DNA of 64,000 nt from a virus (lineage: Duplodnaviria > Caudoviricetes): positions 92,855 through 156,854 of the IMG/VR virus record IMGVR_UViG_3300029305_004322, one strand, 5' to 3'. The translations under genes were made by a program, and so were the position numbers. Below the pieces are notes generated by a model, which ran no database searches, was not told where the DNA came from, and saw only the letters and a list, made by a program, of their open reading frames with translations. This document shows, in pieces, positions 1-23,156 of this stretch (within the stretch, counting starts at the first letter, position 1; the number at the start of each line of letters is the position of its first letter).

Positions 1-577
1 ATTCGTAAGTAGAATCATAAGCTTCAGTTAAGCTAAATCTGAAACCTAAGTTATTATATCCCTTACCTCTACCATTTGGAATTACTGCAAACAGCATATT
101 GTTTGTATAACCATCAATAGTTTCAGCAGTGACACGTCTTAATTCAGACTCAATTTCCGTTTTAGACGTATTGTTAAGGTTAGTATAAGTAATGCAAGGA
201 CGTAACTCGACATTATCTACAACTACAAGCTCACCATTAACATCTAATACTTCTTTCTGGGTTTTCTTAGTCTGAATGTTAACAATAGCATTTGCATAGC
301 CAGCATCTTCAGGAAGAACACGTAAGCAATATACAGCACCGCCAGCATTCAACCAGTTAACAATATTGTAACCAGCCTGACCATATAGCTTCATGTTAGG
401 TTCGCCATAGTTAAAAATAAACTCAGAAGCAGAAGTTATAGTTTGGATTTCATTGTCAATACCCTTTTCAGAAGTAAAAACAGCGAATAATTTAGTAGTT
501 CCTGAAGCAGTAATATACGTAGTAGAATTGTCAGTAATAGTACTGCTTACAGAAGGATGTACATAACTAATTGCCAT
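1..577 (-). CDS. Contractile tail sheath protein, N-terminal part (runs off the window)
   Basis: Translated by hand from ATG at 577: MAISYVHPSVSSTITDNS...FIFNYGEPNMKLYGQAGYNIVNWLNAGGAVYCLRVLP. The HPxV, F..YGxP and WL..GG..Y..RV pattern is typical of sheath N-termini. Not in the ORF track. Confidence 0.8.
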   Translation of the reverse strand, partial: MAISYVHPSVSSTITDNSTTYITASGTTKLFAVFTSEKGIDNEIQTITSASEFIFNYGEPNMKLYGQAGYNIVNWLNAGGAVYCLRVLPEDAGYANAIVNIQTKKTQKEVLDVNGELVVVDNVELRPCITYTNLNNTSKTEIESELRRVTAETIDGYTNNMLFAVIPNGRGKGYNNLGFRFSLTEAYDSTYE

Positions 578-644
578 ATAAAATTTCCTGCTGTTAAAAA
601 TATAATGTAGTTGTTTATTTTATATTATACAGCAGAAACCTCCT
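578..644 (-). promoter_or_regulatory. Split ribosome-binding site: AGGAGG, then a hairpin, then AUG (sheath gene)
   Basis: SD at 639-644. Arms 629-638 and 585-594 pair (10 bp, one G-U), leaving about 7 nt to the AUG at 577. Confidence 0.6.
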
Positions 645-693
645 TTCTTTTTTTGTCATAAATTTTATAAAGTTATAGCAGTTTATAAAGTTT

Positions 694-767
694 TATATAT
701 TTGTTGAAACGAATGAGAACTTTTCATAGAATTCATAAAACTAGGAGAATAAATCTAATATCTTGTT
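694..767 (-). promoter_or_regulatory. Two putative late promoters, AACA-N6-TA (694-705 and 756-767)
   Basis: The same motif precedes most structural genes in the window and matches the AR9 late promoter consensus as I recall it. Confidence 0.55.
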
Positions 768-4069: not shown

Positions 4070-4918
4070 ATGGCACATTTAGTAAAAATTTTTAATGCAC
4101 TGGTTCTTTACTCTTACAATATGCGAGCATTACATTGGAAGATTAAGGGTAAGAACTTTGATGGGAAACATTTTCTAGCTCAAGACTACTATCAAAGACT
4201 AGATGCTTTTGTAGATGAAGTTGCAGAAATGATGATGATGTTAGGTCACGCGCCTAAAGATCTTAAGACTGTTTTAGACAGTACTGCTAATGATCCAAGT
4301 GAAACTTTTTTAGTAGTATCCTGTGAATATGGACAGTCTTATACTGAGGAACAGATGACACAATCTGTAAATGAAATGTTCTGTCATTTGATGGCTCTTT
4401 ATGAAGCTGCAGGTAAGGATGAAAGCCTACCTAGTGATGTTAGATCTAAGCTTGATGAGCATGTTTACTATTTCCGTTTAGAAGCTAGATATAAAGGAAA
4501 TGCTCGTAATATGTCTGATGAGAAAACTGCAGAACTACCTGTTACTCCTCAAGTTACTCTACAACCAGTTAAAGAAGATACGAAAATTCTAGCTGAAGGT
4601 ATTAGAGATGTCTTTGCAAGAGTTAAAGAACAAATGCAAACGAATAAAGAATACAATAAGAAGTATCAAGAATGGAGAAAGAAAGCTAAAGCTGAAGGTA
4701 AAGCATTCTTCCCTGCATTATCTGAATCTGAGGTTGATGAATTCTTTAGACTTGATACTAAGAGTGGTGTATTTGTTAAACATCCCAACCAATTAAAGAA
4801 TATGTATGACAATGTTGTCAAAAATGTAAAGGCAAATAACTACATTTCTGAGCAAATGCCAATTATGAAACATTGGATTCAAGTTTATACTCCTCTTTAC
4901 AATCAAGTCGTAAAGTAA
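4070..4918 (+). CDS. dps: Dps/ferritin-like protein with a C-terminal extension of about 130 aa
   Basis: LHWKIKGKNF...H...YYQRLDAFVDEVAEMM is the Dps ferroxidase motif. SD AGGAAGG places the start at 4070. AACA-N6-TA promoter at 4023-4034. Confidence 0.8.
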   Translation: MAHLVKIFNALVLYSYNMRALHWKIKGKNFDGKHFLAQDYYQRLDAFVDEVAEMMMMLGHAPKDLKTVLDSTANDPSETFLVVSCEYGQSYTEEQMTQSVNEMFCHLMALYEAAGKDESLPSDVRSKLDEHVYYFRLEARYKGNARNMSDEKTAELPVTPQVTLQPVKEDTKILAEGIRDVFARVKEQMQTNKEYNKKYQEWRKKAKAEGKAFFPALSESEVDEFFRLDTKSGVFVKHPNQLKNMYDNVVKNVKANNYISEQMPIMKHWIQVYTPLYNQVVK

Positions 4919-19045: not shown

Positions 19046-19279
19046 TTATCCAAAATAGTACTTCTCGACACTAATAACTTCAGTATCATTCCAAATAATT
19101 TCCCAATCCTCATCATGACCTGATGAACAGTTAGTACAACTACATAAACTAGCTGTATTACCATCGTTATTAGTAAGTGAGACTTGTATGATGAGTTCTT
19201 TATTACAGATAGGACATATTGGGAAGAGTTTGTGGGAGTTGATAGTGGTATTATTGATGAAAGGGTAGGGTGAGGTCAT
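19046..19279 (-). CDS. Small zinc-finger protein
   Basis: CPIC...CTNC; ATGA overlap with the upstream endonuclease gene. Confidence 0.7.
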   Translation of the reverse strand: MTSPYPFINNTTINSHKLFPICPICNKELIIQVSLTNNDGNTASLCSCTNCSSGHDEDWEIIWNDTEVISVEKYYFG

Positions 19280-20271
19280 ATATCTAACTCCTTAAGATAT
19301 TCATTTAGATCTTTCTTTAAAACTTTTTCTAAATTATCAAAGTCTTTGTAACTAATTCGTATGAGACCAATATTGTTATCTAAACAATAGTTAGTTTTGA
19401 TTTCATCATGTAATTGAATTGTATCTAAGTCAGCTGCATAAGAACCAAAATTAGCTTTTTCGTAATGTTGTATACCATCAAACTCTATACAAAGATCATA
19501 AGCTGGAATATAAAAATCAAATGGTAAAGGATTTTTATCTCTACAGTCTTTAAATCTGTATTGCTGTATAAATTCTATATTTCTACTTTCTAAGACTTTT
19601 CTTACTCTTTGCTCACCTACAGATTCATTACATCTTGGACATTTATAGTCTTTTCTTTTGAAATGGTCTATATCGGTATCGAAGTCTCTACCACAACCAC
19701 CAATATGTAAGATTTTTATCAAACTCTTAGTGTTTTTATAATTGTCTGAAAGAAGTTTATATTCACCAGAATGTTTAGTTTCAACAATTTTCTTAACATC
19801 TTCATAAGATAACCTATTTGGATGATTAATTACTTGGTATTGTCTAGAACATATAGGACATCTAGTATTTGCTTTATTCTTTGGATTTGTTAAGAATCCA
19901 ACAGTTGGTTTTTTAAATTTTTCACCACATATTTTATGGAAAAATTCCATTGGTGTTTTGTTATCTTTACACTCAACACTTAGTAATTCGTATTCATCTC
20001 CATCTGGTAGGTTTTTGATTTCTTCTCTAAAACTTTCTAAAGTTCTTTCTTTATTTCCATAACATTTTGGACATCTTCTTCCTTGTTGAAATTTATTTGG
20101 TGTAACTTCATATTGATGTCCACATGTGTTATGCCTCATTTTAATTTTTACATCAGTTTTCACATATTTTCCTAAAACCGTATACTCATCTCCCACTAAA
20201 CTATAAACTAAATCTCTAAATTCTTTATCTGTCATAGGAGGAACATAACCCTTTGCATTTTTATTACTCAT
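19276..20271 (-). CDS. Free-standing homing endonuclease (Vsr/DUF559-like EDxHD nuclease with Zn-ribbon repeats)
   Basis: Repeated H..CG...CP.C modules; LPFDFYIP...IEFDGIQH...HDEIK...LIRISY; own AACA-N6-TA promoter at 20321-20332. Confidence 0.8.
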   Translation of the reverse strand: MSNKNAKGYVPPMTDKEFRDLVYSLVGDEYTVLGKYVKTDVKIKMRHNTCGHQYEVTPNKFQQGRRCPKCYGNKERTLESFREEIKNLPDGDEYELLSVECKDNKTPMEFFHKICGEKFKKPTVGFLTNPKNKANTRCPICSRQYQVINHPNRLSYEDVKKIVETKHSGEYKLLSDNYKNTKSLIKILHIGGCGRDFDTDIDHFKRKDYKCPRCNESVGEQRVRKVLESRNIEFIQQYRFKDCRDKNPLPFDFYIPAYDLCIEFDGIQHYEKANFGSYAADLDTIQLHDEIKTNYCLDNNIGLIRISYKDFDNLEKVLKKDLNEYLKELDI

Positions 20272-20380: not shown

Positions 20381-20417
20381 CAATATATCTAGCTATACTC
20401 TATTAAGAATTCCTAGA

Positions 20418-22331
20418 TTAATATCCAGGAGTCTGAGGTCTAATATCTTAGTTTGACATTTGTTAGATGTCAGTCTTCTATTTTCATAGAAGTAGAGATT
20501 ATATCATAATCCATTTCTCGCTTTTGGATTCTAAATACAGATCGCAAACTTATGCGACACTTAATCGTTGAACCTTATTTCTAAGGATGCTGATTGGCAA
20601 TAGCTTTTCCAGCAATTCTTTTAGATTTGATATGCATTTCTGCATAAAACCGCTATATTTGTTAACGGCACCGATATTATTCTTGATAGTAATACGGCAG
20701 ATAAGGGGAGTGAACTCCTCAAGTGCATGACGCTTAGTCATCATAAGACTAGGAACGTTAGGCATATTAGGATCACGGTAACCTCTTTCTACGTTAAAGG
20801 TGTAAGGATAGTACTTGTAGGTCATGAGACGATCAATTCCAGGTACGAAGAACATAATGAACGCACCTGCAGGAACTAGGTCACTAGAAACCATCTCATA
20901 CTTGTTAGCACCAGAGAAAGCACCAAGGTTGAAGGATACATCAACACCAGACATCTGGTCAGAAGTGTGGTTGAATACCCAGTCAACGTTAGGAATGATC
21001 TGCATGTCAATGGGGTTACCAATGATCATGAACTTACCACCGTGGAACTTAGCATCAGACTTCATCTTGATTGCATAGTAGTCAATGACAGTCTTCAGCT
21101 CTTCACGCCAGCTCTTAGGAGTACCATTGTAACCAGCGGAAGGAATCATATTGAACTCACCTAAGTACTGAATGTTATTTACTTCGATAGAGTTGTTAAG
21201 GAAGTTGTAAATCTCAATTTCAAGCTGCTGAGCAACGGTCTGAGACATTAAGTCAACAACTTCAGCTGCGCCATCGATATTGTAGATAGCCATAGTATCC
21301 TGAAGCCACTCAATAGGCAGAGGAGCATTCAGGTGGCTGCCAACACCGATGGTAACGTCCTTAGTAAGAACGTCGAAGCTTACAGACTGACCGTAGTCAT
21401 TTGCTTCTTGAGAGAGACGAGCATCAATAAATGCATGAGTAATCATGTTGCCAGAAGACATTAAAGTGAACTTACCATCTGCATAGTCAACACGACCAAG
21501 TAGAGTCTCGTAAACTTCACCGTACTTAGTAACTACACCAGTAGTAGGATCAGTTAACTGAACGGGAATAGCAACACGAGCAGAAATAAGAGCATTCAGG
21601 TCGGTCTTGATGTGAACACGAATGGTCATCTCATCAATGTCACCACCTGCATAGCCATTCATGCTACCAGCAGCAGCCTGTTCAGCAGCTTGAGCAGCAG
21701 CCTGAACTGCAGCCTTGTTAACCTTAACAGTCTCAACATAGAAGACCTTGTCAATGGTGTCAGTGCCTTTTAGAGCAGGAACCTGTGGGAAACCATTAGC
21801 ATAGAGGTCGAAGTCAATCATAGGAAGTACAAGACCATCAGCAGGGTTAACGAATCTAGGAAGCTGAGCTTCTCTGTTGTTTAGATTATTGATAGCATCG
21901 GGAAGCTCTTTCTTGTTGCCTTCAGCATCCATTAAGTATGCCTTGGTGTAAGAAATAGCAAAACGAGGAGTTGCAACAACCTGAGTAGGAATAGCATGCT
22001 TTAGAGCTACCTTTGCCCACATCTTACGAATGGTAGGCATAGATAAGCCAGCGATTTGCTGAACGCCAGATACAGATGCTTCCTGAAGCATGCTGGTACG
22101 AGCGTTGTCCATAAGTTGATTGAAGTTTTCAACCTGGTCAGGCTCCATACCTTCAAGTAAGTGATCTTTATACTCATTGAAGAGAGTCTGCTCAGATAGA
22201 ATTTCTTCCATACCCTGATGGGAAGTCATCTGAATGCCTTTGTTAGCAAAGAACTCAGCTGCTTCTCTTAATACATCAGAGAAACCATCGTTCATTCTAG
22301 AACGAGCTGTTTGACGATATTCAATAGACAT
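20418..22331 (-). CDS. Major capsid protein (T4 gp23-like), spliced: 22331-20665 joined to 20439-20418 (or to 20446-20440)
   Basis: WLQDTMAIYNIDGAAEVVDLMSQTVAQQLEIEI resembles the gp23 LAQDLRAVHGMDADAEL segment; strong expression codon bias; near the prohead protease gene; the ORF-track C-terminus is intron sequence. Confidence 0.85.
20440..20664 (-). mobile_element. ORF-less group I intron in the major capsid gene
   Basis: Core AAUUGCUGGAA...AAUCAGCAUCCU...GGUUCAACGAUUA...GAUAUAAUC; P1 GCCGU|UA pairs with UAGCGGU giving the U-G pair; the 3' G is at 20440 or 20447. Confidence 0.85.
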
Positions 22332-22393
22332 AAGTTTAAATATCATACGTAATTTGATCGAAAGAGATCAAATCCAGTGTATGATTTCCTCCT
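22332..22393 (-). promoter_or_regulatory. Split ribosome-binding site: AGGAGG, then a hairpin, then AUG (capsid gene)
   Basis: SD at 22388-22393; outer stem AUCAUAC/GUAUGAU, inner stem AUUUGAUC/GAUCAAAU; AUG at 22331. Confidence 0.65.
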
Positions 22394-22518
22394 TTCATTT
22401 AGAAAAAATTTAATTTTTGTTTGATTTAATATGATGTAGTATATTAAAATCTTTTCTATAATTTGTAGTGTCATAGTTAGTTTTACTATTACCACTGCAA
22501 ATACATAATTTAGTAGAC

Positions 22519-22530
22519 TATTTATTTGTT
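22519..22530 (-). promoter_or_regulatory. Putative late promoter AACA-N6-TA for the capsid gene
   Basis: AACA AATAAA TA on the minus strand. Confidence 0.5.
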
Positions 22531-22562
22531 TACTTTTTTGTTTAGAAAAAATTTCGTTTTAG

Positions 22563-23156
22563 TTATTGATACATGACACTAATTTGTTTTACTATATCCG
22601 CATATGACTTTGTGGCTATTTTGATGTACATATAAAGCGTTAAAAGCTGCTTATAAGGCAAAATTAGGTACTGCTCAGTTAAAATAATTAATACCTTCTG
22701 TTTGTTTTCTTCCATTTTTTGGTTTACAAACATGTATATTTTTTGGGCATCATCTGAAAGATCTCTGGATAATATTTTATTTGTTGTTCCTAATAATTCT
22801 TCAATTACTTCTAGTAATGCTTTGTAGTCATTAAATAGCTTTCTTTTCTTAAAGATATCCTTGACATTTACTGAAGGACTACCAAGACCCATAGATGGAT
22901 CTCCACCCATTGTCATATCACCAGACATATTATTTCCACTGCCCATATCCATTTCTTCCATACCTGGGTCAAAACTTCCCTCACCCATATCATTCTCAAT
23001 CCCCATACTTGCATCTTGTTCTTGTGGTTCGTATGTAGTATTAGGTTCATTTGAGAATGTTGTTTGAGTTTGGTTAGTTTGTTGTACGTTACCAGGTGCT
23101 TCATTTAAAAGGGATAATAAGTATTCTTCACTTAAAATTTTAAAATCTCTTTCCAT
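22563..23156 (-). CDS. Probable prohead scaffold/core protein
   Basis: Directly upstream of the capsid gene; ILSEE and LLNE|A possible cleavage sites; acidic Met/Gly-rich linker. Confidence 0.55.
   Translation of the reverse strand: MERDFKILSEEYLLSLLNEAPGNVQQTNQTQTTFSNEPNTTYEPQEQDASMGIENDMGEGSFDPGMEEMDMGSGNNMSGDMTMGGDPSMGLGSPSVNVKDIFKKRKLFNDYKALLEVIEELLGTTNKILSRDLSDDAQKIYMFVNQKMEENKQKVLIILTEQYLILPYKQLLTLYMYIKIATKSYADIVKQISVMYQ

Follow-up and report, generated by a model that had tools for sequence, protein, structure and literature searches.

The gene for the major capsid protein of an uncultured AR9/PBS1-like jumbo phage, whose host is likewise uncultured, raises the question of how a ribosome finds a start codon that lies 56 nucleotides (nt) away from the only Shine-Dalgarno sequence (SD) in its neighbourhood. 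The gene is carried by a 64,000-nt stretch of DNA (positions 92,855 to 156,854 of IMG/VR record IMGVR_UViG_3300029305_004322; hereafter the window), which lies within a contig of 156,854 bp representing the window's own genome and referred to as G000. Public sequencing runs in which this stretch occurs derive from animal faeces and from bovine gut, and a search for near-identical DNA among cultured phages found no match. The two genes of interest are the following:

20550..22331, minus strand: major capsid protein gene, start AUG at 22331 (PHROG 20655, E-value 9e-148)
1..577, minus strand: tail sheath gene, 975 amino acids (aa), AUG at 577-575, extending past the start of the window (PHROG 19666, E-value 6e-239)

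The capsid protein shares 40.7% identity with the major head protein of AR9/PBS1. An earlier reading of the letters alone, made without database searches (the sequence-only reading), had suggested that in the capsid gene a hairpin bridges the distance from SD to AUG, in the manner of phage T4 genes 25 and 38. The analysis described below points the same way: the capsid and sheath leaders are, with a probability of roughly 0.7, split (noncontiguous) ribosome-binding sites like those of T4 genes 25 and 38, though larger, a proposal resting on a normal folded spacing in 17 leaders, on compensatory base changes and on the restriction of the design to two genes. Split ribosome-binding sites are textbook curiosities, known from two genes of T4 and from a small number of E. 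coli operators, and those of T4 are said to have been treated by Gold (1988), Nivinskas et al. (1999) and Malys and Nivinskas (2009).

Anatomy of the capsid and sheath leaders

All leader features are read on the minus strand of the window. Those of the capsid leader, in the order in which a ribosome would meet them, are as follows:

22388..22396, minus strand: SD GAAAGGAGG, a 9-nt perfect complement of the 3' end of 16S rRNA, 56 nt from the AUG
22379..22385, minus strand: 5' arm of the outer stem, AUCAUAC, the same arm being present in the relative L006
22352..22373, minus strand: inner hairpin, made of AUUUGAUC (22373-22366), a 6-nt loop UCUUUC and GAUCAAAU (22359-22352)
22342..22348, minus strand: 3' arm of the outer stem, GUAUGAU, containing an in-frame AUG (22346-22344)
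22332..22341, minus strand: unpaired A/U-rich spacer of 10 nt from the helix to the AUG, without SD-like sequence

The exact elements of this layout agree with the sequence-only reading. The distance of 56 nt is precisely the interval from the last G of the SD to the A of the AUG at 22331, and no other SD was found near either of the two candidate capsid AUGs, nor any canonical start codon 3-14 nt after the SD. The SD is separated by two nt from the two-part stem, in which AUCAUAC/GUAUGAU enclose the inner stem; the gap between helix and AUG-UCU, estimated earlier as about 6-10 nt, measures 10 nt, and the two-tier hairpin (22385-22342) thus leaves 2 + 10 unpaired nt. The duplex of the capsid GAAAGGAGG with the anti-SD is predicted at -15.0 kcal/mol, against -7.5 kcal/mol for the AAAGGAG of AR9. 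Folding, which the sequence-only reading had named as a check, gave a hairpin more stable than shuffled sequences: the spacer alone reaches -15.8 kcal/mol (z-score -5.4), and the 81-nt context -17.2 kcal/mol (z-score -3.0), with one in 200 shuffles equally stable. The outer helix has a pair probability of about 0.7 in context.

The longest capsid open reading frame (ORF; 20550-22346, 598 aa) begins at the upstream AUG, which is embedded in the stem. Homology to both the PHROG 20655 profile and AR9 gp117 sets in only at residue 6 of this longer ORF, and in the relative L006, with an 88% identical protein, the frame is closed by a stop 12 nt before the AUG; the true start is therefore taken to be 22331, and the upstream AUG at 22346, inside the 3' arm, is probably not used. 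An N-terminal extension of the protein back to the SD was excluded by the in-frame UGA at 22370-22368 within the inner hairpin. A leader peptide initiated from the SD was likewise rejected, as the SD of the window has no canonical start after it and in-frame stops lie between. In-frame stops separate SD and AUG in all the capsid leaders, and the short ORFs that follow the SD in three of them (L004, L005 and L094) are not conserved.

The sheath gene had been thought to share the design, and it does so with a hairpin of its own:

639..647, minus strand: sheath SD GAAAGGAGG, 61 nt from the AUG at 577
588..635, minus strand: sheath hairpin, CUGCUGU (635-629) pairing with ACAGCAG (594-588) around an A/U-rich interior, -15.3 kcal/mol, z-score -3.1

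Three U residues follow the SD, and 10 nt lie between the helix and the AUG, so that the layout is alike although the stem is unrelated in sequence to that of the capsid leader. Covariation, also named beforehand as a check, was found here. A 7-bp core stem occupies the same position in six phages, and three of its seven pairs are changed on both sides without any mismatch (G:C to C:G, C:G to U:A and G:C to A:U). The arms were anchored by a script for this comparison, since the MAFFT alignment misplaced the 3' arms.

As a separate observation, the sheath leader L026, from the genome G002, carries a second GAAAGGA in the 9 nt between its hairpin and the AUG; it ends 2 nt before the AUG, too close for an SD role, and resembles a partial duplicate of the SD.

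Geometry of the leaders in related phages

Capsid homologues were gathered from IMG/VR and the metagenomes of the Joint Genome Institute, and sheath homologues were gathered too. The same layout was found in 17 leaders (10 capsid and 7 sheath) of related uncultured phages. In these split leaders the distance from SD to AUG ranges over 26-91 nt, whereas the SD is always followed by the helix within 0-4 nt, and a further 6-13 nt separate the helix from the AUG. The predicted folds leave 7-14 unpaired nt in all 17, to be compared with an ordinary SD spacing in these phages of median 9 (5-95% range 4-14). What is looped out spans 16-80 nt, from 5 bp with a 6-nt loop in L106 to branched structures of up to 80 nt in others, and the folding z-scores of the spacers lie between -2.0 and -5.4.

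This constancy of geometry is not accompanied by constancy of sequence. The stems have no sequence in common between lineages, and G004, a relative with 58% G+C, has G+C-rich stems with unchanged geometry. Within the capsid leaders closest to that of the window, the core UUUGAU/AUCAAA of the inner stem is kept while the apical pairs vary on both sides (the comparison covers the window, L006 and one contig of a bovine gut RNA library). A search of IMG/VR for the exact arms matched only the two nearest relatives, and a search of IMG/VR with the capsid protein of L103 did not find a close relative.

To express the layout as a single statistic, the joint geometry was defined as one enclosing helix with no more than 4 nt between SD and helix and 6-13 nt between helix and AUG. 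Of 18 leaders, 17 show it, where shuffled sequences would give 1.8, and shuffles almost never show it at equal stability. Real and shuffled sequences are told apart only by this geometry in combination with stability. Several of the leaders come from close relatives, and about 14 independent hairpins were counted.

Proposed mechanism

On this proposal, the phage's own RNA polymerase probably transcribes the capsid and sheath genes late, from promoters of the form AACA-N6-TA, and the resulting mRNAs would carry a very strong GAAAGGAGG 56-61 nt upstream of the AUG. The spacer would then fold locally into a hairpin reaching from 0-4 nt past the SD to 6-13 nt before the AUG, and this hairpin would be looped out on the platform of the 30S subunit, leaving SD and AUG some 7-14 unpaired nt apart. 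Since the folded spacing equals the normal spacing, one 30S subunit could hold SD and AUG together. What the comparisons show is the anatomy, a shape conserved with compensatory change, the confinement to two genes and the joint presence on both; we infer that the SD is present in the transcript and that initiation depends on the fold.

Restriction of the split design to two genes

Initiation led by an SD is the norm in this phage, as 25 of 73 GGAGG and 72 of 110 AAGGAG sequences are followed 3-13 nt on by the start of an ORF of at least 40 aa. Six genomes were scanned for strong SDs without a nearby start and with a long ORF 15-160 nt downstream, namely the window contig, G001 (complete, 319,626 bp), G002, G003 and G004, all with split leaders, and G005, with ordinary leaders; the scan sizes given are 157 kb, 320 kb, 99 kb, 15 kb and 14 kb. 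The split design was obtained on capsid and sheath genes only. The remaining orphan SDs lie inside a coding region or a tRNA, or belong to a terminator preceding the real SD. Seven other GAAAGGAGG sites in G000 have ordinary unstructured spacers of 7-13 nt, mostly 12 nt, a value above the genome median of 9 and equal to that of the split leaders of the window after folding.

A test for a dispersed or mobile hairpin-leader repeat gave two modules per genome without similarity beyond the SD, and no transposase or repeat ends were found near the hairpins. Rfam 15 gave no match at the gathering score in the window, and none at E-values up to 1 in the interval 22250-22620. An intrinsic terminator also appears not to be involved, the hairpin being unreported by a terminator scan and not followed by a U-run.

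Phylogenetic distribution and co-occurrence

In a tree of 40 capsid proteins, the window falls in a fully supported clade of seven, of which six have split leaders and one (L093) is ambiguous; the sister of this clade, L007, has an ordinary leader. Split leaders occur elsewhere on the tree in L009 with L106, in L102/L103 and in L105, and at least five changes of leader state are needed. A constraint joining the window clade with L009/L106 was rejected (approximately unbiased test, p-AU 0.0016). The split state would accordingly have arisen at least twice or been lost several times. As the folded spacing equals the ordinary one, insertion or deletion of a single palindrome suffices to switch the state, so that gains and losses would both be easy.

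The states of the capsid and sheath leaders were concordant in 11 of 11 genomes. Both are split in five (G000-G004, belonging to two lineages, the window clade and G004) and both ordinary in six (G005, the L018 contig, AR9, SA1, G006 and G007). All five cultured relatives inspected, AR9, BpSp, SA1, LPJP1 and phiR1-37, have an ordinary capsid SD, 6-11 nt from the AUG, and differ from the split leaders in lacking the hairpin; the sheath leaders of AR9 and SA1 are also ordinary. The major head (g117) and sheath (g126) genes of AR9/PBS1 are homologous to those of the window, with the same type of late promoter and long 5' untranslated regions (UTRs).

The strict co-occurrence of the two leaders in separate lineages points to a genome-level cause. 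A plain 12-nt spacer would otherwise suffice, and a further purpose of the hairpin may therefore be presumed, which may be the protection of very abundant late mRNAs. The hairpin could thus be regarded as an adaptive module repeatedly acquired by AR9-like jumbo phages of gut anaerobes, always for capsid and sheath together, although this extension of the proposal is tentative and rather less probable than its negation. If true, it would imply a cause acting on the whole genome, to be sought either in a factor of the phage or in the ribosome or RNases of the host. In one version, a 30S subunit locked on the 9-nt SD against the helix would both initiate and shield the most abundant late mRNAs from 5'-to-3' decay; in another, the fold would set the time at which these mRNAs become translatable.

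Evidence weighing against a split ribosome-binding site

Several findings count against the proposal of a split site. The joint-geometry criterion was chosen post hoc, and bridging by itself leaves the presence of the hairpin unexplained. Two leaders are not clear cases: L102 requires a pair of hairpins and is left with 22 nt, and L093, a member of the window clade, is ambiguous in having two possible AUGs. The number of exterior unpaired nt is by itself not below that of dinucleotide shuffles (combined p 0.29), because the minimum free energy (MFE) fold pairs most A/U-rich sequence in one way or another. When the full 221-nt capsid leader is folded, the MFE structure swaps the outer stem for a 9-bp hairpin around the AUG and pairs the SD weakly with an upstream U-run, the ensemble being diffuse; this alternative fold, with its AUG hairpin and SD/U-run pairing, is not conserved among relatives. 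The predicted accessibility of SD and AUG also differs widely among leaders. Finally, the transcript start sites on which the presence of the SD in the mRNA depends are predictions from a weak motif, short and A/T-rich.

Comparison with known systems

In T4, folding reduces the SD-AUG spacing from 22 to 5 nt in gene 38 and from 27 to 11 nt in gene 25, with proof by mutation and probing (PMC3014915, PMC7297116). The likeness to the present leaders lies in an SD too distant for use and a stable hairpin that cuts the spacing to a usable value (5-11 nt in T4), in a structure kept in close relatives and missing in distant ones, and in the class of genes concerned, which are late structural genes of phages. 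The differences are of scale and setting. The gap is 26-91 nt here against 22-27 nt in T4, and many of the hairpins have two tiers or branches; the SD, 9 nt long, is of Gram-positive type and stands in long monocistronic leaders, not at an intercistronic junction; and the design here concerns both of the most abundant virion genes in several lineages of an unrelated phage group, where it is predicted, while that of T4 is proven by mutation.

The E. coli genes thrS and rpmE (PMC3936740, PMC7297116) are similar in that the ribosome accommodates a long hairpin without unfolding it. Their hairpin, however, lies upstream of the SD and is the operator of a repressor, whereas the hairpins described here separate SD from AUG, and nothing points to a binder.

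The 17 leaders, which belong to the most highly expressed genes of a phage group whose translation signals are of Gram-positive type, form a natural series with which the size limit of an insert on the 30S platform could be explored, together with any effect of these modules on mRNA stability or on timing. Annotation is affected as well: a gene caller relying on an SD close to the start codon will place the capsid and sheath starts of these phages wrongly or score them too low.

Alternative explanations

The possibility that GAAAGGAGG acts mainly as a stabiliser of the mRNA has a precedent in the STAB-SD of cry3A from Bacillus thuringiensis, where a similar sequence stabilises the mRNA without directing initiation (PMC4113751). 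A parked 30S subunit and the hairpin would then block 5'-to-3' decay by RNase J1, and the AUG would be used independently of an SD. In its favour are a GAAAGGAGG-type sequence far upstream on a very highly expressed mRNA of Gram-positive type, in the two genes that need most mRNA, and an SD of unusual strength (-15.0 kcal/mol). In STAB-SD mRNAs, nevertheless, the start codon is served by a functional SD of its own, the STAB-SD being non-initiating, whereas no second SD occurs here near either AUG. A stabiliser also needs no tight limits from SD to helix (0-4 nt) or from helix to AUG (6-13 nt), such as are seen over the 17 leaders, and the predicted 5' end of the capsid transcript lies about 124 nt upstream of the SD and not adjacent to it. 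As the sole function of the SD, stabilisation is thus improbable, though it could coexist with bridging as a second function. The STAB-SD of cry3A is reportedly due to Agaisse and Lereclus (1996).

The hairpins might be neutral or selfish palindromic insertions, tolerated since they fold out, kept paired for the sake of translation and of no adaptive benefit. In favour of such an origin, the folded spacing equals the ordinary one, a single insertion or deletion switching the state, and the trait is labile on the tree, with its five or more changes. It sits poorly with two copies per genome that resemble neither each other nor anything elsewhere, and with the choice of always the same two genes, and always both, in at least two lineages. 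The seven other genes of G000 with GAAAGGAGG and a spacer of 7-13 nt have no such insertion, and transposase or repeat ends were not seen nearby. An origin of this kind is about as unlikely as stabilisation alone.

The sequence-only reading had also offered the hairpin as a regulator-binding site or timing switch, and this part of it found no support, as stems and loops turn over and no alternative fold is conserved. On a broader reading, the hairpin would be an operator or processing site (a target of a phage or host RNA-binding protein, of autogenous repression by the capsid or sheath protein or of RNase III, or a folding switch for the timing of translation), and bridging would be incidental. 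A further role is indeed to be expected of a hairpin that is dispensable for bridging as such; the window contains an alternative AUG hairpin and a U-run pairing with the SD; and each gene has a separate hairpin, as autogenous control requires. No loop or stem motif is, however, common to capsid and sheath or to relatives with 70-88% identical proteins, and the fact that the hairpins differ between the two genes of one genome and change between close relatives argues against one sequence-specific binder. Their range from 5 bp (L106) to branched structures of 80 nt does not suggest a uniform RNase III substrate, cleavage of the stem would part the sole SD from its AUG, and the predicted accessibilities are as inconsistent as the alternative fold is unconserved. 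An operator is hence slightly less probable still.

A host-type promoter within the capsid hairpin (TTGATC-18 nt-TATGAT, 22371-22342), which matches the sigma-70 consensus at 9 of 12 positions, ends 10 nt before the AUG and would give a nearly leaderless mRNA with an irrelevant SD, is most improbable, since such sites occur at chance level (6 in 500 nt against 3.2 in shuffles), are missing from the unrelated hairpins of relatives and would be out of place in late genes of AR9 type, which are read by the phage polymerase (PMC5312081).

Transcripts and promoters

Phages of AR9 type use their own polymerase for late genes, and the late promoter of AR9, determined by differential RNA sequencing, is AACA-N6-TA/G, with the last base as the start of transcription (PMC5312081). 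Matching motifs precede both leaders of the window:

22519..22530, minus strand: capsid late promoter motif AACA-N6-TA, predicted start 22519, with a second copy at 22542-22531
694..705, minus strand: sheath late promoter motif AACA-N6-TA, predicted start 694, conserved in L024, L131 and L027

The predicted 5' UTRs would be about 188 nt long for the capsid gene and 117 nt for the sheath gene. An AACA-N6-TR motif lies upstream of the SD in 18 of 18 split leaders, the relative with 58% G+C included, and never between SD and AUG. Assembled contigs cannot reveal the 5' ends of transcripts, and four RNA libraries yielded only short contigs, 90-99% alike, none of them covering the interval from SD to AUG. 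One of 157 nt from a bovine gut metatranscriptome (run X9) matches the leader with its SD (window 22378-22431) and runs on into the 5' portion of a variant hairpin, with the inner stem UGAUUUUU / AAAAAUCA. Carry-over of DNA is possible, and the match therefore indicates the presence of relatives in cattle gut RNA libraries without proving transcription.

A terminator-like hairpin with a U-run at 820-781 (minus strand) stands just upstream of the sheath promoter motifs, and the sheath gene is thus probably a late transcription unit of its own.

Two further sequences were noticed in the capsid leader. A 14-nt direct repeat, AAATTTTTTCTAAA, occurs at 22554-22541 and 22411-22398 (minus strand), one copy adjoining the upstream promoter-like motif and the other standing immediately 5' of the capsid SD; it is the U-run of AAATTTTTTCTAAA that pairs weakly with the SD in the MFE fold of the full leader. 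A sequence resembling ATATTAAAT is present at 22432-22424 (minus strand) and recurs in many capsid leaders, split as well as ordinary, at a distance of 20-45 nt upstream from the SD; it is also found within the interiors of sheath hairpins. ATTAAAT occurs in 19 of 40 capsid leaders against 9.2 expected, while no enrichment of the ATATTAAAT motif was detected over the whole window. The element perhaps corresponds to a motif of late 5' UTRs to which the AR9 study refers (PMC5312081, Fig. S3).

Interruption of the capsid gene

At its other end, the open frame of the capsid gene as read stops at 20550, and its final 32 residues (within window 20412-20664) have no homologue, the relatives ending in ...NN(V/I)GxVPxTPGY. 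A frame encoding PQTPGY followed by a stop is found at 20438-20418 (minus strand), about 200 nt past the last homologous capsid codon, an arrangement that fits a small intron in the last capsid codons. No group I intron was reported in the window by Rfam at the gathering score. The gene is followed by an ORF for an HNH homing endonuclease (PHROG 559) at 19276-20271 (minus strand). In the closest relatives, L003/L006, at about 4513-4747, the capsid frame is closed behind ...PGIDRL and reopens some 235 nt further on with MTYKYYPY; the interruption being elsewhere, the positions of such putative introns would differ between close relatives.

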